A DNA stretch of 64,000 nt from Eledone cirrhosa (lineage: Eukaryota). Position 1 is the first letter of the stretch; each line of letters begins with the position of its first letter. The position numbers were made by a program, and so were the translations under genes. The notes beneath the pieces are model-generated. The model saw only the letters and a list, made by a program, of their open reading frames with translations. It was not told the DNA's origin and ran no database searches. Location of the stretch: assembly GCA_964016885.1 (NCBI GenBank), contig OZ024743.1, positions 118,420,001-118,484,000 on the forward strand, read 5' to 3'. Of this stretch, positions 2,515 to 64,000 are shown in pieces.

Positions 2515-3680
2515 AAATTCAAAGGGGTATAATTAGACATAGTCACAGATACATATATGACTTTGGCTACCTTTCATGGTGTGGCACAATGAAGAATTAA
2601 TTAAGCAAATAATCATTAATCAGAGCTATATATATATAAAATTGCAGGTTTGAAGAACTATTAGATAAAATATATACAGTATTTTCTCTTCCTAGTCCGT
2701 ATAAATCAACCACATAAAAATCATTTAAACGGGGCTATAAGTTTAAAATGTAACTATGAAGAAATAATAGACAAATGATACAGACTATTTTCCGCGATGT
2801 ACAGCCAGATAAAATTTATCCAGATATTTCTTTTAGCCTGTAGAAATTGACTAGACAAATAATCAACTACAGGGAGTTAGGTACAAAATAGAAGTTTGAA
2901 GAAAAAATGCACATAAACTTTACCAAAATTCCTCTAGTCCCGACCACCGGCGGTTTCGTTCCATTTTTTGGATATACTCTATCTTGGATCTATTCACGAT
3001 GATTCTAGACTAAGTTTTCTATCATGATCCCCGCCAGAGATGAATTCAAAATGGCTAAGAACTATCACGTGGCCAGTGGTCAAGGCAGAACATTTGGGAT
3101 TGGTGCCTGTCGGCGAGTAGGCTGGTTGCTAGAAAGCGCAGCCGGATACTGCCTAAAGCTTTACTCAACCTTACGGGAGTATATATTAAATTCAAAGGGG
3201 TATATGTATATAATTAGACATAGTCACAGATACATATATGAGTTTGGCTACCTTGACGGTATGGCTCAATGAAGAATTAATTAAGCAAATAATCATTAAT
3301 CACAGCTATATATAAAATTGCAAGTTTGAAGAACTATTAGATAAAATATATACAGTATTTCCTCTTCCTAGTCCGTGTAAATCAAACACATAAAAAATCA
3401 TTTAAACGAGGCTATAAGTTTAAAATGTAAAAAACTTAGTCCAGAATCGGAGTGTCTCCTGATGAGTTCCAAGCCTCGTGGATAGATCCAAGATCGGGTA
3501 TATAAAAAAAAAAAATGGAACGAAATCGCCGTTGGTCGGGACTAGAGGAACTTTGGTAAAGTTTATGTGCATATTTTCTTCAAACTTATATTTTGTACCT
3601 AACTCCGTGTAGTTGATTATTTTTTTTATATACCCGATCTTGGATCTATCCACGAGGCTTGGAACTCATCAGGAGACACT
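2515..3680 (-). mobile_element. Non-coding HHR-bearing element: about 673-nt unit, partial tandem copy, inverted 5' segments
   Basis: 2515-2753 repeats directly at 3188-3430. 3431-3620 is an inverted copy of about 2860-3017. 3626-3680 inverts 3452-3505. Abuts (TA)n at 2491-2512. Confidence 0.7.
3454..3542 (+). ncRNA. Type I hammerhead ribozyme
   Basis: gtctc-CTGATGA-gttcca...tggaac-GAAA-tcg(ccgt)tgg-TC-gggac, with all three stems pairing. The minus-strand paralog at 2937-2963 has stem III ACCG(CCGG)TGGT with a palindromic loop. Confidence 0.8.
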
Positions 3681-8237: not shown

Positions 8238-8494
8238 GAGAGATGACCGGTGTATATATAGAAGCAACGGCCCTATTCTTTTGTGTGTAGAGCCAATCCT
8301 CTGGGAAACGTGCGTAACAGGTCGATACGCGGTAAATATCTTTTACATGTGAACGAAACTTACTCATTTTTTTTTCTAATATATACAATCCACCTGTACA
8401 TAGAGTGGTTGCTTTGGTACCAGCACCAGTAATACACTGAACCAGCTACACTATATATATGCATATCGCTATGTGGAAACACGAATACAAATAT

Positions 8495-9495
8495 ATATAT
8501 AGGAGCAAATCATGGAATAGCTTAAATAGGACTAAACATAAGATAGGGAAAGCCTCCTCATTGTACGACAACCAGAGATACCAGAGTGTCATGTTCGTGG
8601 ATTCTACCCCTGGAGGGAAATGACCTAACCGATGTAGCAAGGCCCTAAGAAAGACCAATTTAAAGATTAAAGTGGTAGAAAAACCAAGACATACGCCTTT
8701 AAGAAAACCCACTGTACAAATAAGAAATATGTTAGAAGTAAAATGAATCTGCTATAAGTAAAATGAATCTGTAAAACTAGAAATGTAGTTTATAGCATAA
8801 GATATAATGAGGGTACTTGCAGAAACATGACCACGCCATATATAGGTGAGACATCTCGAAGCATAGGAGAAAGAATAGACCAACACCGGGGGGAACTAAA
8901 AGGACAAACAAAAAAAACGGTTCAGTACTATATGAACACGCCAGACAAAGACATGGCCATAATATAGACAACATAGAAATTAAAATAATATCTAAACATA
9001 GAAATGACTCACTCTACAGGTAGGCAAATCAGAGAAGCCACTGAGATAGGACTAAGTAGACCGAAGTTAAACAGAAAAAACGAATGGAATAACAAGAACA
9101 ACCATAACCAAACAAACAATACTGACTTAAGGGAAATATAAATAAATATATACACAAGTGCAATAACCACAAACACATATAAGCACACACTAGTGAACAA
9201 AGATAGAATACAAAAACAAACACGCACACACTCAAACATATGCGCAGGGACAGATACAAGAATAAATAAATAAATGAAAATAAAAATGCCGTAGACATAC
9301 AATACAACAGGAGGAAAAAACTGATGATGTTGCAGATGTGCAACGAAAGAACTTTGATAGACTATATATATATTTATATCTGTATTTTTAACCGCTGGTC
9401 AATCAATGATAAACATTGATTGCCAAATAAATTAACTATGGAAATATAACAGATACAGAAACGAAAACCAACCCAAACATTGAGTGTGTTCTGTT
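8495..9495 (+). mobile_element. PLE 3' portion (linker, GIY-YIG endonuclease, 3' UTR), pseudogenised
   Basis: Manual translation gives YRSKSW..SVMFVDSTPGG..IKVVEKP, CKTRNVVYSI..CRNMTTPYIGETSRSIGERIDQH and QIREATEI..PKLNRKNEW. HHR-like core CTGATGAt-gttgca-gatg-tgcaac-GAAA at 9321-9348. Confidence 0.8.
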
Positions 9496-9676: not shown

Positions 9677-9730
<54 letters not shown>

Positions 9731-10222
9731 TCGTGTTCCCACATAGCGATATGCATATAAATGTACGCATTCTATATTGAATAATATACGGGATGTTTAT
9801 GAAAATCATTTGTAGAACTTACGCTATGAATGTTAAGGTTGTGACCAACGTTACGTACCCAGCTTCAGCAAAAGCAGGAGGAAGTAGGAAGTAATGGAAG
9901 ATGCCACCGTTTGTCACTTCTTAGTGGTTTTCAAGACTATTATATCTCCCCGCGTTTGCTGAAGCTAAACTAAACTAGATTCTTATAGAATTCTGCTTAT
10001 GTTTATGTATGACACGTAGTATTCCACAAAATTGCTTGCCCAAGCAATTCACCTGGTTGAGAAATGAGAAACTTGCCCATAATCTCAGAAGACCACCCGG
10101 GTTTCCTATCATATGTATTTGCGCGCGCGCGCGTGTATGTGTGTTTGTGTGTGTGTGCGCCTGCGTGTGTAGTATTTATATATAGCATTTATCCTTTTGA
10201 TTAATAAAAGGCCTCGGGCGCA

Positions 10223-10294
10223 CCCGAACTACGCCGATGTCCTGTAATTCAGCGCCGAAACATCGGATCGGGAAACATTTACAGCTGACGATGG
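10223..10294 (+). ncRNA. Candidate non-circularly permuted hammerhead ribozyme (family A)
   Basis: Stem III ccgatgT/Acatcgg, GUC site 10239-41, stem I ctgtaa/ttacag, GAAA 10257-60 before CTGACGA 10285-91, outer helix cccga/tcggg. Confidence 0.65.
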
Positions 10295-17037: not shown

Positions 17038-19542
17038 TTCCTTTAAGTCGTTTGGAAGTCTCGACAATGCAGATGGGTAAATCTCCGGTAACAAGATCCG
17101 GTGGTGGAGAGAGAGATGTAAGTGGGTGTACATTGAGATGCGTGGCGTGTAGAAGACTGTAGCGTGTAGAAGAATGTAGGAAAGAGCGTAAAGGATAAAC
17201 ATAAAAATAATAACACGAGATAGAGTTACTTTGGGAGAGATTTAATTGTCCCTATATATTTCGGATTCACATCCATCAAATGGGTTTTTTTCGGGGGGAG
17301 GGGGGGACACACATACACACACACATCAACGCCGCCTCAACCAACATCTGCGACCGGCGGAAGCTCCCGAAGAAGCTGAGATACAACCTCCTCACGAGGA
17401 ACAGCAGACTACCCGCCTTCTACCACCTCGTGAAAACACACAAACAGGGACCCGACCTGAAGATCAAGCCCATTGTATCGAGCGTGAAAGGACCGCTCTA
17501 CAAAATTTCATGGCTCCTAGACAGAATACTCAGATCCATCTTAGACACCTTGCCGGGACACGTTAACAGCTCCGAGGAGATGTTGAAGCGCCTGCATCAA
17601 ATGGATCCCGACACCAAAAAGGATAACAGATATGCCTTCAGCCTTGATGTAGTCGCTCTCTACACCTCGGTCGTAGCAATCCCGGCCGTTAATATGCTGA
17701 TGGAACGCGTCCAATCCACCGACCTACACTGCTTCGGCCTCACCACCACTGACATCCACCAACTCCTATCCATCGTCGTCGACAACATCTACTTCGGATT
17801 CCTTGACCAAGCATACCAGCAAACCTCGGGACTGCCCATGGGCTCAAGCCTGTCGGGTGTGCTAGCGATCTCTTACATGGACAGCCTCGAGCGCAAGGCA
17901 CTCAACGCCTGCCACCCCAACGCCGTCGCCTTTTTCTCAAGGTACGTGGACGATATCCTCATCCTCACATCTTCCCAAGACATGGCGAACAGAATCTATG
18001 AGACATTCAACAACACAGACGAGAACATTGACTTCAGTGTTGAACACCCCAGCGACGACGGGTCACTTGCCGAATCAATTCGAATCAACATCACGGTACA
18101 GGGAGGGATCCACTGCAACTTCTACCGAAAGGCAGCCTGCAGAGACCTGTTCGTCCACTACAAGTCCGCCCTCCCTAACAGTGCCAAAAGAGGATACATC
18201 ACGAACGAGATCGCGCGAATCAAAAACAGATGCAGCGATCCCGCGAGTGGTGTCAGTCATACCAAGCGATTCCTCGAGGTGCTGGAGACGAACGGGTACC
18301 CCACCTCGCTCACAGACAGAGTAGAAGACAGAAGAGACAGAGAGGCACCCAAGGCAAGTGCTTCCTTAAAATGCCACACCTGGGCGAGAATACCACCAAC
18401 GCTATCCGCAAGGCTATACGGAGGGAGGGCCTCGACATCCACCTGGCCCACTCGGGCCCCTCCCTGCGAAGATGCTTCTCTAGGAAACCCGGGAAATCAA
18501 CTGACGCGTGCTCCCTCAGAGACTGCCCGATGCACCATCCCAACTGTTGCCTACGCACATACGTCGTGTATAAGATAGAATGTAACAAGTGCAACCAATA
18601 CTATATAGGTAGCACAATCCGGCCGCTGCACATCCGGATCAAGGAGCACACTAACACCAGGGGCTCATCTTTCTGGAAACACATAGCCAAATGCGGAAAC
18701 AAAGACGGAAGGCCCATTGTCACAATTCTAGCGACAGAAAGAAACGTCGGCACATTACGTATCAAGGAAGCACTTTGGATCAAACGCCCAGGGCCACAAT
18801 TAAACAACCGATCCGAGAGAAGAGAAATGAGGTGGTTGGTTTAAGTAAACAAACGATGCAGCAACACACGCACACACACACAAGCGAGACAGCAACACAC
18901 GCACACACACACACACACACAGTAGCATTCCACCATACGAACATACTACACTGCCAATACAGAGGAACAAGGCAACAACACACGCACACTCAAGCGAGAC
19001 AACAACACACGCACACATACACAGTAACATTCACCAAACAGGCAGAGAATACTATGGATGACAGCTAGCGCCACCCCACTCCCACAAATGAAAGAACTAT
19101 TTCGGCCGCCGACATCTGCTTGACCGACCCCATTTCACGCGCACGCGCGCTCTGCTGAATACGTTAGATATTCAAAACAACGAACAGCGGAGGACACGTT
19201 TCGCACTTTTCCGACAGACAACCTCCCCCCCCCCCCCCCCCGGAAAAAACCCAGTTGATGGATGTGAATCCGAAATATATAGGGACAATTAAATCTCTCC
19301 CAAGATAACTATATCTCGTGTTATTATTTTTATTTTTATCATTTACGCTCTTTCCTACATTCTCCTACACGCTACAGTCTTCTACACGCCACGCATCTCA
19401 ACGTACACCCACTTACATCTCTCTCTCCACCACCGGATCTTGTTACCCGGAGATTTACCCATCTGCCTTGTCGAGGCTTCCAAACGACTTAAAGAAATTT
19501 ACATTATTATTCCACAATGCTTCAAGCAAACTTCAATACTCT

Positions 19543-20307: not shown

Positions 20308-20615
20308 GTATCAGTCGTACTAAGAGTGAGAAATGAAATTTCATTTGATTCTTTTCCATATATATAAAAATATAAATATATATATATATACACACACATA
20401 TACATATACAAGTACCAATCTGTATCTTGCCTTTCCATTGGATAACATTGGTGGCGTGTATAGGAGAAACTTTTGGTATGGGCAATTATTTGTCTCATAT
20501 AAAACCTGTCCAGGCCTGAGCAGATATTTGGCCAAATCTGTCAGACGGAAACGTGAGATAAAGAGGGTCGTGGTGGAAGTATTTGATTTAATACACTATG
20601 ACAAAACTCTTTAAA

Positions 20616-20792
20616 TAGTTGTTTCTACTTTTGGCACAAGGCCAGCAATTAACCAGTACATTACTGGTACTTTATTTTATCGATCCCATAAGGTTGAAAG
20701 GCAAAGTTAACCTCGACGTGATTTGAACTCGTAAAGGGACGTAACTATGCTGGAAAGCATGGTGTCCGAACATCTACCGATACTCCCAATTC
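20616..20792 (-). mobile_element. SINE
   Basis: Reverse complement of tail, core and head. A more decayed copy follows at about 20930-21080. Confidence 0.8.
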
Positions 20793-22255: not shown

Positions 22256-22674
22256 TCATTTTAAGTAGGGACTATGTCACTTACTTCTTTTTTCGGTAAA
22301 GGAAGGGAGAGAAGCTGACAGATTCTGTTTCACACTGTTGGTGTTCCTCAGAGCAGCGTACTCCCTGCCTCTGCCGAAAATTATAGAGGCTGGATTCTTA
22401 TAGAATTCCAGTAATAATCAGGAACTGATTATACAGAGCGAAAAAAAGAAGTAAGTAACATAGTCACTACTTTAAAATGATAGCGCAATATCTTCAAAAT
22501 GTTTTTAATTAAACATACGGCATATTGCCAAATATACTATACATACATTCATGTATACATCGCTATTTCAGAGCACCAATGCTAATTTATAATTTTTGCT
22601 GGACCGGCATCGCTCTGTATAATCAGTTCCTGATTATTACTGGAATTCTATAAGAATCCAGCCTCTATAATTTT
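22256..22674. mobile_element. Rearranged copy of the element at 58472-58765
   Basis: Shared blocks GACTATGTCACTTACTTC, GAGAGAAGCTGACAG and CTTATAGAATTCCA..GATTATACAGAGCG, two of them present in both orientations. Confidence 0.85.
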
Positions 22675-25274: not shown

Positions 25275-25357
25275 CCCAGTACTGGACTGGTACTTTTTTT
25301 AATCGACTTTGAAAGGATGAAAGGCAAAGTTGACCCCGGCGAGGATTTGAACTCAGA
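25275..25357 (-). mobile_element. SINE core fragment, apparently within a decayed LINE-like segment (about 25150-25520)
   Basis: CTGGTACTTTTTTTAATCGACTTTGAAAGGATGAAAGGCAAAGTTGACC..GGATTTGAACTCAG. Confidence 0.65.
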
Positions 25358-49016: not shown

Positions 49017-49082
49017 TATTTTATCTGATGAAAGCGCACCATAGTTTAACTTTGTTGCTCTTGAAATATGTATAATGAAATA
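49017..49082 (+). ncRNA. Type I (minimal stem III) hammerhead ribozyme
   Basis: tattttat-CTGATGA-aagcgca...tgctctt-GAAA-tatgta-TA-atgaaata, with an 8-bp stem I. (TA)n lies about 40 nt downstream. Confidence 0.75.
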
Positions 49083-52426: not shown

Positions 52427-52990
52427 TATTATACTATAGTATGCTATATTATATATCTACCATACAAGAATCCATTGATCAAAAAATACAGACTTGTCCC
52501 ATATATTGTAATGGCTGGATGATTAAAGTTTGTAAATAGGAATAATCGTGAATAGTTCTTGTGGATTAACCCATGCTATAGGTGTTTGTTGAGTCCGTTC
52601 TGAAAAGCACATATCTTTCTATTCATTTTGTTGTTTTTTTATAGAAAAGAACATTGAAATATTCTTTGAATTTAGCGCCATCTCTCTGCTATCTCTCTAT
52701 CTTCTCTCTTTGCCACATAATCCCCCCCCCCCCCCCCCCACAGCCTCTCTTGCTATATATATATATATAAGGAAAAAAGATGAAATCGAAAATGCAACTG
52801 GAGACTTTTTAAGAATATTTATTTGGTTCCTTTACTGGTTTCGCAGTTATTATGCTTTTCAAAAGTAGAATTGAGATGGAGGGTTTGTGGTTTTTCTCGC
52901 ATCTGATTTCATCTTTTTTTCCTTATACTTTCACTCGTTTTTTTTTCATTTTGGAAAAAAAAACTAATTTTCTAATATATATATATATAT

Positions 52991-53635
52991 ATATGTGAAA
53001 AATATGGGGAGAAGAATACTGCATGGTTGCACATGGATAACATGTTATAAAATGAGTCCCTCATCAGTGATTTGCAAACGGTCATTGGTATTTCATTGCA
53101 TTAAAAATCATATACCTCACGTTGGTGCAATAATAACTAAAATAAGTTATTAGGACAATTAAAACGCGTAAAGCGAGTGAGACAAGTAAACAACACAGGG
53201 GAAAGCTAACCGAAGATAGGAAGAAACACAAGCTACATAGTTATTCTATCAGTATAAGCTGGGTGAATATATGAGCGAGTAAAGAATAGACCTTTCGCAA
53301 TGAATCCGATGTAAGAAAGAAGGAAAATCGTTTTCGTAGCGAACGGGGGAAGTGAGAAGGGGAGAAACACTGAGTGAGTGAGTGGAAGTGCGAGGAAGAG
53401 GTCAGTAGAGAGAAAATGTTAACTGACATGACAGAGGGGGCGAAAGAAAGTAAGAGAAACAGAGAGAACGAGGGAGCAGTAAGAGAGAGAGAGAGAGAGA
53501 AAAACAGTATCGCAGTTTAGGTAAATATATGTGAAAAATATGGGGAGAAGAATACTGCATGGTTGCACATGGATAACATTTTATAAAATGAGTCCCTCAT
53601 CAGTGATTTGCCAACGGTCATTGGTATTTCATTAT
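52991..53635 (-). mobile_element. Family B element: 536-nt unit plus partial tandem copy; permuted HHR at 53058-53125, partial copy at 53595-53633
   Basis: About 108 bp repeated at a 536-bp offset (TCATCAG at 53061 and 53597). Reverse complement of 30810-31010. (TA)n on both sides. Confidence 0.8.
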
Positions 53636-54304
53636 ATATATATATGCTTACACAGTGACCGCAACTCGCTTGATACTTGAACATGCGCATCACAGACGTG
53701 GCTTTTTAGTCCTGCTAGGGACTTCCCTATGGTCAACAATACTAAGCATCTTAAAAAATGTCATATTAAGCGACGCCTGTGCTTTAAGCTTTTTTAAGTG
53801 AGGAAAAGCTTTGCACGGGTCAATCCCACACTCCGAACACCGAATGCATTTGCCCAAAAAGAAGAACTGGTCTACATCATTGGATGCAAACGAAGTCGCA
53901 GATTTTATATGAGAATGACCTTTTCCTAGAGACATGTCTTAATTAAGAGTAGGAGTCCCTCCAAACAAAATCAAATACATTATTTGATGTCCGTTGACGC
54001 CCCCGCACTTTGGAGTGTTTTGTTTTTCATCCTGCAGGGTGTCCAAAATCACCCTCTTCACCAAGCAAATTTGGTGGGCTTGCCGGTTTAGTCGCCAACG
54101 ATCCGACCATGCACGGGTTGTACTGGGTTGCATGTCACCAGTTGCGCTGAAGATCGACCTGATATAAGCTTACATAGATATATACATACACACACACTAA
54201 TCTATATAACATTTAACAAAAACAAAAATGCAAGTCTCTGCGAAATTTCCTGTGTCCCACTCGTTTACACATAATAACACATACTTTCCTACATAAAAAT
54301 GTAT

Positions 54305-54391
<87 letters not shown>

Positions 54392-54392
<1 letters not shown>

Positions 54393-54840
54393 AATGGTTT
54401 CTGATTTAGGCAGAAGGCCAACAATTTTGGGAGGATGGAATGCGATTAGATCAATCTCAGTGCTTTACTAGTACTTTATTTTATTGACCCCCGAAAGGTT
54501 GAATGGCAAAGCTAACTTCGACGGGATTTGAACACAGAATGCAAAGGGCCGTAACGACATACCATAATCATGGTGTTCGACGCTCTACCGAATCTGCCAA
54601 TCCACCACCGTTATGAGAATAATAGTAATAATGGTTTCTGAATTAGGCACAAGGCCAGCAAATTTGAGGCGAGACTAAAGTTCATTAAATCGACCCCAGT
54701 GTACTTCAGTTTATCGATCCCGTAAGGTTGAAAGGCAAAGCTAACCTCGGCTGGATTTGAACTCAGAACGTAAAGGGCCATAACTCTATGCCACTAAGCA
54801 TCTTGTATGACGCTTTACCGATTCTGCCAATCCACCACCA
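54392..54840 (-). mobile_element. Two tandem SINE copies (54392-54612 and 54630-54840)
   Basis: Each shows the reverse complement of tail, core, GGATTTGAAC and head CTGCCAATCCACCACC. Confidence 0.85.
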
Positions 54841-55052: not shown

Positions 55053-56192
55053 GCTTTTTCTCGAATATTTTTTTCCATTTCTCCCCTGATCATTCTCCTC
55101 TATCTTGCAGATATTCAAACCACCAGGATTGAACTTACCACCTTCGTTCTTCCAACTCTCAACTCTTCACTATCCTCACACATACTGTGTGGTTACACAC
55201 ACCTTGTTGTAATTAGAAGTACCTGACTGGAGAATAACGATTCTTACTTATCTCCCCTGTCACTGACTCATCCATCATTACGTACTTAGCTCTCCTCTCT
55301 CTTGAAATATCGTTACAATCGCCGTTTTAATAACATTCCCTTCTTTGTTTCTGTCCCTTCTTTCACAAATATACCCAATGCTTTTTCTGAGAAAGTCTCT
55401 AAGATGTGTTGAAACACGCCCGAAATTCTCCCAGTTAAAAATACTAGAAAAAATATGTATTGACTAATATCAATTTAAATGTGAATGTTGTGTGTAGCGC
55501 CATATTGAAAAGGCTTTTGACTTGAATTTATTCAGTCGAATGTCTTGATTTGGGATATATATTTCTTATTGCAAATATAACACGGTGATTTTAATTTAAC
55601 GAATAAAATTGTGCCTGTATTGAGTCTCAATTTTCCACTTCATTCTCTATCCAAATGTAGATTCTCATGGTATCAATTGCTATTGGTCTTTGCTTATTCT
55701 GGTTTTTGCACATCCGAACATAGTGTTTTTACTGAGATTATAAATACTGTTAATGTTTTTAAGTGCGAGTGTGTTCATCTAACTGTTTTTGTAGCTATCT
55801 ATGGCTATTCATCTCTAAGTACATCTGTGTCTATGTTTTTGTGTGTATCTGTGGCTGATTGTGTATGTATCTATGTATGGCCCCGTGAAACATTCCCTTA
55901 CCCTAGGATGTTTGCAAGAGATTATTAGAATGTTTTCGTAGGAGTGTTCTGATGTGTCATATATATTTTTCTGTTTGTTTGGAGGTGGTATTTTATGTAT
56001 TGGTGGAGGGTGAATTAGTTGGAATTAGCTGATGCAACAAACTGTGAACTTCGTTTATATTTTGATTATGTGAGTAATATAGTGTAGATGTTTAATGTTA
56101 TAATGATTACATTTAAATCGCTTATAGCCCGGCAGATACATGGGCATGCATGTATACACTCATATAATACATACACACATAACTCTCTCTCT

Positions 56193-56292
<100 letters not shown>

Positions 56293-57511
56293 GGTGGGCC
56301 CATATAACCCTCATGATAGTGACCGCTCCGCACATCTGAGTGACACCAACCGAGCTCGACCTGAGCTGTGCACAACCACGCGATGGCTCACAGCGGACAC
56401 CCTACAACACCGCATGAATAGGACCAGGAATGTCACATGGTATAACCATCCGTACTCGGTGGGCCTACGTACCAGCCTGGCTAGAACATTCTTTAGAGTA
56501 CTGGATAAATGTTTCCCTAGGGCCCACAAGTACCATAAAATATTCAACAGGCACACGGTGAAACTTTCCTACTCAACCACACGCTCCGTAGCCCAGCACA
56601 TAGCTGGCATAAATAGGAATAGGCTCACTGCCTCTAATACCACCGTAAACCACGGAGCCACCCAACAGAACCAGCACGCGGGACGCAACGGAACCCGGAC
56701 AGGCCCAACTAGCACACCGGAACCCAACGACCCTGTGCTGATTGCGGAGGCTACCCAGTCAAGCCCGAGTGATGGTTACCACGCGGTACATGTGGTGGGG
56801 TTTAAGAAGTCATATAATTGCAGAGACCCATCACTATGCCCCCTTAGTAATGAATGCATGACGAAAAACGTAGTCTACAGGTACAAGGTCACAACCCCTA
56901 ACACAGAGCACCACTACATAGGATCCACAGCGATGAGCTTCAAAGATCGGTGGTATAACCATCGCCATTCCTTTAACAGAATAGATAAGAGGAAATGTAC
57001 GGCCCTTTCGGAATTGATCTGGTGGCTCAAACTTGAAAAGACCCCGCACTCTCTGGTCCGTGGTTAGAAAGGTTCCCCCAGACAGAGGTGGATCTGGTAT
57101 TTGCAAACTCTGTCTTAGTGAGACACTCGAGAATCTTCATGGCGGAACCAAGCTATTAAACAGAAGGGCCGACTTATTTGGTGCCTGCAGACACCTAAGG
57201 ACGGGAAATTTCCTCAAGCTATATGGATAAGCCCCGGTTACGGCCTCCCCCCCTCCCTATAGGTCCCCTACACCCCGTACCAATGACCAATGGACAACAA
57301 TAACCACCCATAGTTTGTGGTCCCTATGGTGGATGGTCCACCGGATCTTCTACTGGTTAGGAGTCATCTAAACCACGCTTTATTGAACCTGATTTTATAT
57401 ATATATGTATATAATATGTGTATATATATATATGTATTTTATATGTGTATATATGTGTATTTTATATATATGTATGTATATATATGTATATATTTTATAT
57501 ATATATGTATG

Positions 57512-58460: not shown

Positions 58461-58763
58461 TATATATATATATTAGGATTGGTGCTCTGATATAGCGATG
58501 TATACATGAATGTATGTATAGTACATTTGGCAACATACCGTATGTTTAATTAAAAACATTTTGAAGACCTTGCGCTATCATTTTTAAAGTAGTGACTATG
58601 TCACTTACTTCTTTTTTTGTCGGCAAAAGAGGGGAGAGAAGCTGACAGAGTCTGTTTCACACTGTTGGTGAAAACTATAAAAGCTGTATTCTTATAGAAT
58701 TCCAATAATAATCAGGAGTTGATTATACAGAGCGATTGCCGGTCCAGCAAAAATTAGGTATTA

Positions 58764-58939: not shown

Positions 58940-60560
58940 AGATGGCAAACAATCGTACTGGAGTTATGTATTAAATAAACGTTATGATAGAAATTCGCTC
59001 TACCATATACTTCCTCAACTCTATAAACCGGACATCATAGGCCGCCCCCTCTTCTCCGCGGGCTATTATCCAGCCAAATGGTTTTGGGCTTTCCTTAACT
59101 ACATCATTAAACCTCTGGTAGCGATTTTGCCAATTCCGACTCCAACCACACCTCTACTCCTTGACCCTCCCATCTGGCCCACAACCGCTTCTCGTCACAC
59201 ATCATATCAAGTCCCTCTATACCATTGGTTCCTAAATTTTTCCAAGTTTTTTTCTCGGCGGTCCCCTTACCATTTTTGGGATGCCTCGCGTTTCCCTATC
59301 ATATTATGGCCGTATTTCCAAAATCTTTCAAAGACAAACTTTTATGAAATGCATGACAATATATAATTGTTTCTACTTTAGGCACAAGGCCAGCAACAAC
59401 CCAGTGCATTACTGGTACTGCGGGAATGAAACTCCTATGGTTTGCACGTTAGCGTCAAATGTTTATTCAAGAAAAATTGCTTCCTAGTTTTAAAACTTCA
59501 ATCACGGTATACCATGAAAGTTTGGCTAAGTCTTCACGGTCCCCCCCACACAAAAAAAAAATCGCTTCGTGTTCCCCGAGGAGACCGCGGACCCCAGTTT
59601 GGGAACCACTGCTCTATGCTATTATCCCCCACACCGAGGGTCTCATGGCCCTCCAATATTTCCTCGACATTCGTCCATCGCCTCAAACTTTCACCTGCAC
59701 CCTTATCTACCTGTCCGAGCTGGTCCTCACCCAGAAAGTTTCATCTTTCTCGTGTAAGATGTACCAGCAGACGGCGGGGGTGGATATGGCTATCTTATTC
59801 GTCGACTATGTTGAGGCTCAAATCTTTTCCCAATATGCTGGTGCAACTCACGAGCTATACAGACGTTATATTGATGCCTGCATCGGCGTCACGTCACTCA
59901 TATGAGTACAGGTCGACTCAATCCGCTCCTTCTTTTACATCCATCCCGGCCTTGACTTCATCACTTCCGTTCAATTCTCGGATATCTCTGTTTCTATTAA
60001 CTATTCCAATCACTCCCCCATCACGTCAGTCATCTTTCAACTGCCCGATTCCCACAACTACCGCAGCTTCAAATCATCCCTTCTCACTTCACCAATAAAC
60101 TCCATCCCCTCCTTCCAATTATTTCGTTTCCGCCGTCCGTGCAGTCGAACCCAAGACTCTGAGTCTCAGGCTTATTACAAGGCCAGACTCTTCAGCGGCG
60201 AGTATAACACTCCCCACTCTGATACAAGCCACCCTAACACATACGGGTAGAGCCGACTGCACTTCTGCCCTTGCCACTCGCCGCCCCAAAACAACCGGCT
60301 ACCACTTCCATTTACCTACAACCCTTCCACCTTGCTCCTCCAGAAGACACTCCTCCGCATCTTCCGCCGCCTCCGATCGGATACCTCCACCCTCCCATTT
60401 CCCGCTCCCACTCATCATCTTTTTTAATCGCATACACAAAATTAGGAAGCTTATCATTGATCCCATCCCTTCACCCGGCCCCACTGCCATACATGCAGCT
60501 TCATCCCCCATAGCACTACACTAACCAGATCTCGCAGCCGTATTTTTCATGTTAGGGTCC
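58940..60560 (+). pseudogene. Decayed PLE RT (Neptune-like), interrupted by a MITE
   Basis: ILPQLYKP..GRPLFSA..IIKPLV, IKSLY|AIIPHTEGLMAL..LSELVLT..YQQTAGVDM..YRRYIDACIG. Confidence 0.8.
59223..59611. mobile_element. hAT (Charlie-like) MITE containing a SINE tail fragment (about 59365-59420)
   Basis: TIRs CATTGGTTCCTAAATT / AGTTTGGGAACCACTG. 8-bp TSD CTCTATAC (59215-22) / CTCTATGC (59612-19). Confidence 0.85.
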
Positions 60561-62813: not shown

Positions 62814-62917
<104 letters not shown>

Positions 62918-63129
62918 GTTAAAGTGTACATCTACATATGTATACGGAAGTATTAGTATGCATATAAATACACACATGTATACATATGTACATGTACTCA
63001 GCTTTTCACTAGACACTTTACAGTGAGTGTCAGCTAGTCTGTATGTAACCACACAGGCGGACCGGGTTTTAGAGTCATACGAGTTTTCAAGGAAACACAT
63101 TTCCTCTATTCTCCAGCGGGCCAGACAGG

Positions 63130-63174
63130 AATATTGGACTAGTTTCGATGTTATTACATCTCATCAGCAATATT
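63130..63174 (-). ncRNA. Type I minimal hammerhead ribozyme, intact (unit 1)
   Basis: aatattg-CTGATGA-gatgt-aata-acatc-GAAA-ctag-TC-caatatt, with palindromic ACTAGT stem III and a GUC site. Confidence 0.92.
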
Positions 63175-63598
63175 TACCCATCTTCCGGCTTCTCTGGAGA
63201 ATTGTAAAAGCACATATCGTTATATGCTTTTTCTATGAAAATTAGTAGTGGGTAGACTAATTTGCATAGAACGTGAGTCATTGTACGCACCGGTTCAGCG
63301 GAAACGATAAAAACAAATAACGAAACGAAATTAAATTTCGTTTCGCTTCTAACTCACTTTTGTATGACTGACGCTTAAACAATTAAGTTAAAGTGTACAT
63401 CTACATATGTATACGGAAGTATTAGTATGCATATAAATACACACATGTATACATATGTACATGTACTCAGCTTTTCACTAGACACTTTACAGTGAGTGTC
63501 AGCTAGTCTGTATGTAACCACACAGGCGGACCGGGTTTTAGAGTCATACGAGTTTTCAAGGAAACACATTTCCTCTATTCTCCAGAGGGCCAGACAGG

Positions 63599-63643
63599 AA
63601 TATTGGACTAGTTTCGATGTTATTACATCTCATCAGCAATATT
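63599..63643 (-). ncRNA. Type I minimal hammerhead ribozyme, intact (unit 2)
   Basis: Identical to 63130-63174 at +469. Confidence 0.92.
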
Positions 63644-64000
63644 TACCCATCTTCCGGCTTCTCTGGAGAATTGTAAAAGCACATATCGTTATATGCTTTT
63701 TCTATGAAAATTAGTAGTGGGTAGACTAATTTGCATAGAACATGAGTCATTGTACGCACCGGTTCAGCGGAAACGATAAAAACAAATAACGAAACGAAAT
63801 TAAATTTCGTTTCGCTTCTAACTCACTTTTGTATGACTGACGCTTAAACAATTAACTTAATTGTTTAACTTAATTGTTTAAGCGTCAGTCATACAGAAGT
63901 GAGTTAGAAGCGAAACGAAATTTAATTTCGTTTCGTTATTTGTTTTTATCGTTTCCGCTGAACCGGTGCGTACAATGACTCACGTTCTATGCAAATTAGT

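Follow-up and report, generated by a model that had tools for sequence, protein, structure and literature searches.

Background

Type-SGC hammerhead ribozymes (HRIMA-1 and SGC variants) have been validated in vitro (Eckert et al. 2023, PMC10085705). In the available text of that paper, the non-circular permutations of the hammerhead come from metatranscriptome contigs and environmental sequence, and no genome of a known organism figures among the sources, except for one weak bacterial GCS candidate. The published SGC alignments have a stem II of about 5 bp with C11.1, and the search pattern demands CGAAA (PMC10085705). Our literature search, which covered few subscription papers, returned no link of Naiads or animal genomes to these permutations, and no animal-genome or Naiad cases are reported in the available part of a 2026 paper that cites them (PMC13725137).

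Naiads, which are Penelope-like elements (PLEs), target (TA)n and form partial tandems. They are stated to lack canonical hammerheads, and in the same source some Naiad families, Octopus and Euprymna included, carry the flags 'HHR_core' or 'HHR_half_core' (Craig et al. 2021, PMC8557442). The hammerheads of PLEs cleave poorly and as dimers (PMC6765202, PMC4209133), and are dispensable for insertion in vitro (PMC11167929). In vitro, the template of a Penelope-like reverse transcriptase (RT) is mostly uncut RNA, on which it primes internally (PMC11167929); for PLE tandems, copying beyond one unit has been suggested (PMC4209133). Animal retrozymes have been proposed to be non-autonomous PLE derivatives of 51-972 bp, with two complete ribozymes as the working criterion of an active retrozyme (Li et al. 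2026 preprint). According to PMC7229834, the circles formed by retrozymes have a high degree of self-pairing.

Results

A 536-nt unit and its partial copy between (TA)n tracts

The window analysed here, that is, the whole stretch of 64,000 nt from Eledone cirrhosa, is microsatellite-rich animal DNA with remnants of Penelope-like RT and GIY-YIG. Coordinates of the features are collected in Table 1. A first-pass annotation had described, at the target locus, a tandem 536-nt unit followed by about 108 nt of the next, with (TA)n bounds, no ORF and a GA-rich interior, and this description was confirmed. The direct repeat (52986-53097 against 53522-53633) is identical at 109 of 112 nt (97.3%) in the period comparison, and period 536 alone scored 50/50, the next-best period reaching 30/50. 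With its period limit of 500, TRF did not detect the unit, and the output of a generic repeat finder was dominated by microsatellites. The partial copy measures 112 nt, a (TA)n tract is found at either end, the longest ATG-started ORF in any of the six frames across the locus has 62 aa, and A and G make up 41% and 33% of the plus strand of the interior.

The RNA sense of the unit is the minus strand, in which the interior is C/U-rich and the partial copy lies upstream (5'). Read in this sense, the locus consists of a partial copy without cleavage block, the junction with an (AT)3 remnant (53525-53530), the interior, a complete ribozyme and (TA)n. The 5' end of the partial copy is 13 nt 3' of the place where the next predicted cut falls; if stops were uniform, a stop this near the cut would have a probability of about 0.03, a value calculated post hoc. 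The fold of the 536-nt unit (z -1.9, 42% paired) is neither self-complementary nor rod-like.

Table 1. Features of the target locus, related copies and the 469-nt tandem in the window
Feature	Position	Strand	Remarks
(TA)n target tract	52975..52994	.	3' end of element
Full 536-nt unit	52986..53521	-	non-coding; one complete S-G-C hammerhead core
Block C	53060..53073	-	stem I 5' strand, CUGAUGA (53067), G10.1
K-turn-like bulge strand and IIIb 3' arm	53075..53086	-	3-nt bulge, G, A, C
Block G	53087..53095	-	U11.1, GAAA (53094), stem III 3' strand
Block S	53105..53116	-	stem III 5' strand, AUA triplet, predicted cut, stem I 3' strand
IIIb 5' arm and non-bulged k-turn strand	53117..53125	-	U, G, A
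11-mer	53136..53146	-	common to published octopus Naiad 3' UTRs (by eye)
Pyrimidine-rich (C/U) interior	53201..53500	-	CU microsatellite; purine-rich on +
Junction region	53521..53530	-	end-to-start junction 53521/53522
5' partial copy	53522..53633	-	pseudo-LTR-like, 112 nt; blocks G and C, no block S
(TA)n tract	53633..53645	.	5' end of element
Family copy C1	30811..31011	+	identity about 88-90%; SGC core intact; IIIb of 6 bp; k-turn sequence of textbook form
Family copy C2	32328..32505	+	about 78-80% identical; decayed
F2	10223..10294	+	second SGC motif, distinct in sequence
469-nt tandem	62912-63860	-	2.0 copies, 99% identical; type I hammerheads, C3 at 63636 and 63167

A hammerhead core in the order S-G-C

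That the locus carries a permuted hammerhead had also been claimed, and as a pattern this is sustained. The blocks follow one another as S, G, C in 5'-3' direction, the order that defines the type-SGC hammerhead; the core elements CUGAnGA, GAAA and UH (as an AUA triplet) are intact, and cleavage is predicted directly 3' of the AUA triplet, between 53111 and 53110. Stems I and III are fully paired over 6 and 5 bp, where the type calls for at least 4 bp in each. At the strict setting no match to the SGC pattern was found in 150 shuffled windows, and at a looser setting 4 of 100 gave one. Pattern scans for type I, II and III arrangements returned no fitting reading of the motif at the locus, and an Rfam search across the window at gathering threshold gave no match. 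Minimum-energy folds, computed without the pseudoknot, include stem III along with competing helices.

Stem II is reduced to a single G-U pair (1 bp in total). The published descriptor asks for C11.1-G10.1 as closing pair and 3 bp or more in stem II, and for this reason the motif, judged by its sequence, is classified as an SGC-order variant outside HRIMA-1. The published search would have missed the family, because its pattern requires CGAAA. A longer stem II involving an upstream GUCC-like sequence was rejected: this sequence is not adjacent to GAAA and is not kept in copy C2. A candidate stem I-II helix between the G-to-C linker and the 3' flank is 5 bp long and AU-rich in the target copy and absent from C1.

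The motif shares with type-SGC ribozymes the block order, the full catalytic core and a short S-to-G linker. In those ribozymes, however, the G-to-C linker forms a helix with the 3' flank, whereas at the target locus it pairs with the 5' flank by way of a k-turn-like loop. Compared with the minimal hammerheads of canonical PLE pseudo-LTRs (PMC4209133), the motif likewise stands in a terminal repeat and has one weak stem, and its cleavage, as predicted, would probably be slow or assisted as theirs is; those hammerheads, however, are of type I with a weak helix III and a long helix II, whereas the target motif is pseudoknotted and weak in helix II. By analogy with other PLE hammerheads, the predicted cleavage may be slow, dimeric or protein-assisted. 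We conclude that the motif is most likely a pseudoknotted type-SGC hammerhead in the RNA of an animal retroelement, with predicted cleavage.

Helix IIIb and a k-turn-like loop

Pairing of the 5' flank with the G-to-C linker, which we call helix IIIb, is found in both SGC families of the window, and it is this helix that is conserved, in place of the stem I-II linker/3'-flank helix. Five of its six pairs form in the target copy (one mismatch), and all six form against the arm of the partial copy. Between stem III and IIIb, the target family has a loop in which G.A and A.G come after a 3-nt bulge. C1 has a U.U pair, which we take to be of the box C/D k-turn type. A standard k-turn consists of a duplex, a 3-nt bulge, G.A and A.G pairs and a second duplex (PMC4382518), a definition that the loop fits in sequence; the pattern is present in two of the three complete copies (target and C1) and broken in C2. 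A kink at this place would bring the chain to stem I via a 1-nt linker. Box C/D k-turns need protein to fold (PMC4382518).

Related copies in the window

Two further copies of the family lie in the window. C1 is flanked by (TA)n on both sides; the decay of C2 consists in one stem I mismatch, loss of the k-turn G, and A-U at the stem II position. All core nucleotides and fully paired stems I and III are kept in two of the three complete copies, and the distance from cut to (TA)n is 102-116 nt in the family. F2, the second SGC motif, has a GUC triplet, stems I and III of 6 and 7 bp, a stem II of 2 bp after a U insert, and a 5-bp IIIb across a 6x1 loop; its (TA)n lies 155 nt past the cut. The extra U after CUGAnGA occurs in type-SGC ribozymes as well as in F2 and, by eye, in the octopus Naiads. 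H17 and C3 are 44 nt apart in both F2 and the target family, although the stem sequences differ. F2 has the GC-richer stems and is the best candidate within the window for work in vitro.

A covariance model built on the three complete copies matched its own inputs and the partial copy, and no others. Covariation within the family amounts to one compensatory pair, which is not significant (344 of 500 shuffles reached it), and structural support therefore comes from comparison between families, where the stems are wholly replaced (computed for the target family against F2, by eye for the Naiads). The MAFFT alignment misaligned F2 against the target family and was left out of the analysis. None of the three other SGC-bearing loci of the window reaches into the interior or the junction; when the interior was compared with the sequence preceding C1, C2 and F2, homology did not rise above shuffles in any of the three, and no homologue of the interior was detectable within the window.

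A pattern scan of bacterial and archaeal genomes gave one match (L001 973-1001, minus strand), which has no S block and was discarded as a chance match at a gene start. The gene presumably encodes a ferredoxin-like protein.

Other elements of the window

Several other features were recorded. A type I hammerhead with a loop II insert of about 55 nt lies at 3454-3545 (+), among direct-plus-inverted repeats at 2515-3680. Further CUGAnGA cores occur at 49025 (+), 58363 (+), 35000 (-), 5240 (-), 19884 (+) and 62737 (-), most of them with type I-like pairings of varying quality, and some may be due to chance. A Penelope-like element at 17038-19497 combines an RT (PF00078) with a C-terminal GIY-YIG (PF01541); it has a frameshift and is flanked by 270-nt inverted repeats. 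PLE-like endonuclease/RT remnants are found at 8767-9069, 56183-57067 and 59612-59992 (all +), two of them adjoining (TA)n. Several repeats in inverted arrangements (9729-9858, 8453-8490, 22451-22580 and 58478-58596) have in common a terminal motif that adjoins (TA)n and is likely to be the end of another PLE family. Finally, a SINE-like dispersed repeat of about 220 nt was noted at 597-866, 1950-2172, 2224-2420, 20612-20790, 25275-25357 and 54391-54839, the last being a tandem.

Permuted hammerhead motifs at the 3' ends of Naiads

Of the consensus 3' ends of Naiads in the supplement of PMC8557442, 43, of about 270-400 nt each, were read by eye, as were all Naiad comparisons below. Four of them (Obim and Ovul from octopus, Esco from squid, Ptep from a spider) have the S-G-C order, all four with a proximal stem II of 0-2 bp. 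Full-stemmed hammerheads of type CSG were seen in six nematode Naiads (Nbra-1, -2, -3, Hcon, Hpol and Asuum), and a further CSG match was found in a Pristionchus element. For the other 33 ends, either no core was present in the part shown or parsing was not possible. Among the ends in this supplement, those of bivalves and hemichordates share another conserved motif, and one from a box jellyfish is twister-like in look.

Naiad_Obim and Naiad_Ovul resemble the target family in block order and in a 6-bp stem I, of which they have their own sequence, and they have a 5-bp IIIb and the UGA / A(A/G)UGAU loop of the target family. Between the cut and the (TA)n end there are about 121-125 nt in the octopus Naiads, compared with 102-116 nt in the target family. 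An identical 11-mer, common to the published octopus Naiad 3' UTRs, is placed 25 nt before the cut at the target locus and 28 nt before it in Naiad_Obim; its two occurrences in the window (0.07 expected) are those in the two family copies that have kept it. Naiad_Esco in turn has the 7-bp stem III and the 6x1 loop of F2. The octopus Naiad UTR and the junction region are alike over 12 nt, which was set aside as possibly due to chance.

Insertion into (TA)n and a partial-tandem, pseudo-LTR layout, as expected of a Naiad or PLE, are both seen at the target locus. Unlike Naiads, however, the locus has no ORF with N-terminal GIY-YIG and C-terminal RT, the longest ORF being the 62 codons given above, and its stems and interior differ in sequence. 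The target locus is at most a relative of the non-autonomous or 3'-fragment kind. The PLE ORFs found in the window are of C-terminal-endonuclease types, and no Naiad ORF was identified among them.

Discussion

A probable small Penelope-like insertion

We consider it probable that a small Penelope-like retroelement, related to the 3' end of Naiads and carrying a pseudoknotted SGC ribozyme, was inserted once at the target locus by a PLE protein; the element is probably non-autonomous. The loop closed by stem III would contain GAAA and the cut site, stem I would arise as the CUGAUGA block farther downstream pairs back into this loop, and the k-turn would bend IIIb, such that the chain reaches stem I across the 1-nt linker. 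A head-to-tail transcript would be cut at its upstream ribozyme, which would set the 5' end of the RNA; a Penelope-like RT/GIY-YIG protein acting in trans would nick (TA)n and start internal priming about 120 nt past the cut site, at the AU-rich end. The RT would copy the downstream ribozyme, still uncut, and a whole unit, and would stop 13 nt short of the RNA 5' end, leaving a unit plus a partial copy. The sequence itself shows the repeat, the block order, the pairings and the (TA)n ends, and from it we infer the folding and cleavage of the RNA, a function of the k-turn, the helper enzyme and the form of the template.

The layout fits a self-cleaved head-to-tail RNA, with read-through of one cut and a stop 13 nt 3' of the next. 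A real head-to-tail unit of 536 nt is, on balance, the better-favoured possibility, if a shade less so than the insertion itself. The first-pass annotation had gone further and taken the end-to-start junction to imply a circular or multimeric RNA template. What stands of this is an RNA-derived insertion longer than one unit, with cDNA running through the predicted cut; what does not is the equation of the junction (53521/53522) with the ligation site, the predicted cut being within the unit (53111/53110). A circular template is possible and is not needed by the explanation; a circular intermediate appears unlikely. The tandem by itself is ordinary PLE behaviour, and the notable part is the ribozyme with its link to Naiads.

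Was there a 536-nt RNA unit?

It is quite possible, if less than probable, that the junction is a one-off, in which a 5'-truncated piece of a longer Naiad-like 3' UTR was followed by a second short end copy through a template jump, re-priming or a local DNA duplication; there would then be no 536-nt RNA unit, and the ribozyme reading would be unaffected. PLE insertions are heavily 5'-truncated with partial tandems (PMC8557442), a Naiad 3' UTR is about 1 kb by eye and could hold 536 nt free of ORFs, the other copies of the family are short 3' fragments, and (AT)3 remains at the junction. On the other hand, there are 13 nt between the end of the upstream copy and the predicted cut, and the number of differences between the two copies is 2 in 100 positions, compared with 10-20% between family members, a closeness that fits one event of either kind.

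Does the structure cleave by itself?

A second question is whether the hammerhead-derived structure still cleaves alone. It could have become an RT-binding or RNA-stabilising element, or cut only as a strand-swapped dimer or with protein, which we regard as rather unlikely. The proximal stem II of 0-2 bp, both in the motifs of the window and in the four S-G-C Naiads (by eye), speaks for such a loss, as do the poor, dimeric cleavage of PLE hammerheads and their dispensability for insertion cited above, and the protein dependence of k-turns of the type presumed for C1. Yet families with wholly different stems retain the UH site and every nucleotide of the catalytic core, and nematode Naiads carry full-stemmed CSG forms (by eye).

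Is the target element a retrozyme?

The preferred reading, a small Penelope-like insertion, has also to be compared with retrozymes. The animal non-LTR retrozymes are, like the target, small, non-coding, head-to-tail and PLE-linked (PMC7229834; Li et al. 2026 preprint), and the low GC content (39%) and a hammerhead-bearing unit are shared as well. They differ in having type I hammerheads, at least two full units and self-paired circles, whereas the target has one SGC ribozyme in 1.2 units and no type I arrangement at the locus. The window offers a direct comparison: the 469-nt unit, with its classical type I hammerheads, folds with z -11 and 69% paired. The cut site of this tandem falls within the unit and its end adjoins (TA)n, as at the target locus, and an inverted 5' piece lies beside it (63864-64000); it is a typical non-LTR retrozyme with PLE-like ends.

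A retrozyme-like monomer of 536 nt, as had been suggested in the first-pass annotation, is not what this locus would yield: it has one complete ribozyme and no rod fold, and it could not release a monomer because the partial copy lacks the cleavage block. A true retrozyme would rather imply 536-nt arrays elsewhere, with monomers cut at both ends, circularised and reverse-transcribed for more than one round. We hold this to be doubtful. It would agree with a cDNA that crosses the cut site and exceeds unit length, and with the proposed descent of animal retrozymes from PLEs; re-ligation is plausible too, since the S-G-C order would leave nearly the whole ribozyme on the 3' product. Against it stand the single complete ribozyme, the lack of a rod-like fold where known circles are highly self-paired, and the stop near the cut site, which a circle leaves unexplained.

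That short motifs in AT-rich repeat DNA fell into this order by chance, as the short, AU-rich stems and the matches in loosely scanned shuffles might suggest, is very improbable and largely refuted, given the empty strict shuffles and because two families of the window and four Naiad families (by eye) share the layout with different stem sequences.

Implications for Naiads and for the hammerhead permutations

As a tentative proposal, to which we give a little less than even weight, Naiads and their non-autonomous offspring would carry active hammerheads, as SGC in cephalopods and a spider and as CSG in nematodes; the octopus form would be held by a k-turn, be nearly devoid of stem II, be switchable by a host protein of the L7Ae/15.5K type and process a 536-nt head-to-tail mobile RNA. 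If this is true, the non-circular permutations SGC and CSG gain their first known host genomes and a biological role, and the octopus form is a new architecture, pseudoknotted and almost without stem II. A natural k-turn-assisted hammerhead with minimal stem II would have a bearing on ribozyme structure and on the design of protein-controlled ribozymes. The link also suggests that standard searches for types I-III miss many animal ribozymes. Naiads are among the most abundant retroelements of invertebrates and have been reported without canonical hammerheads, and the permutations, one weak bacterial candidate aside, have been without a known host or role; a link between the two would answer both open points.
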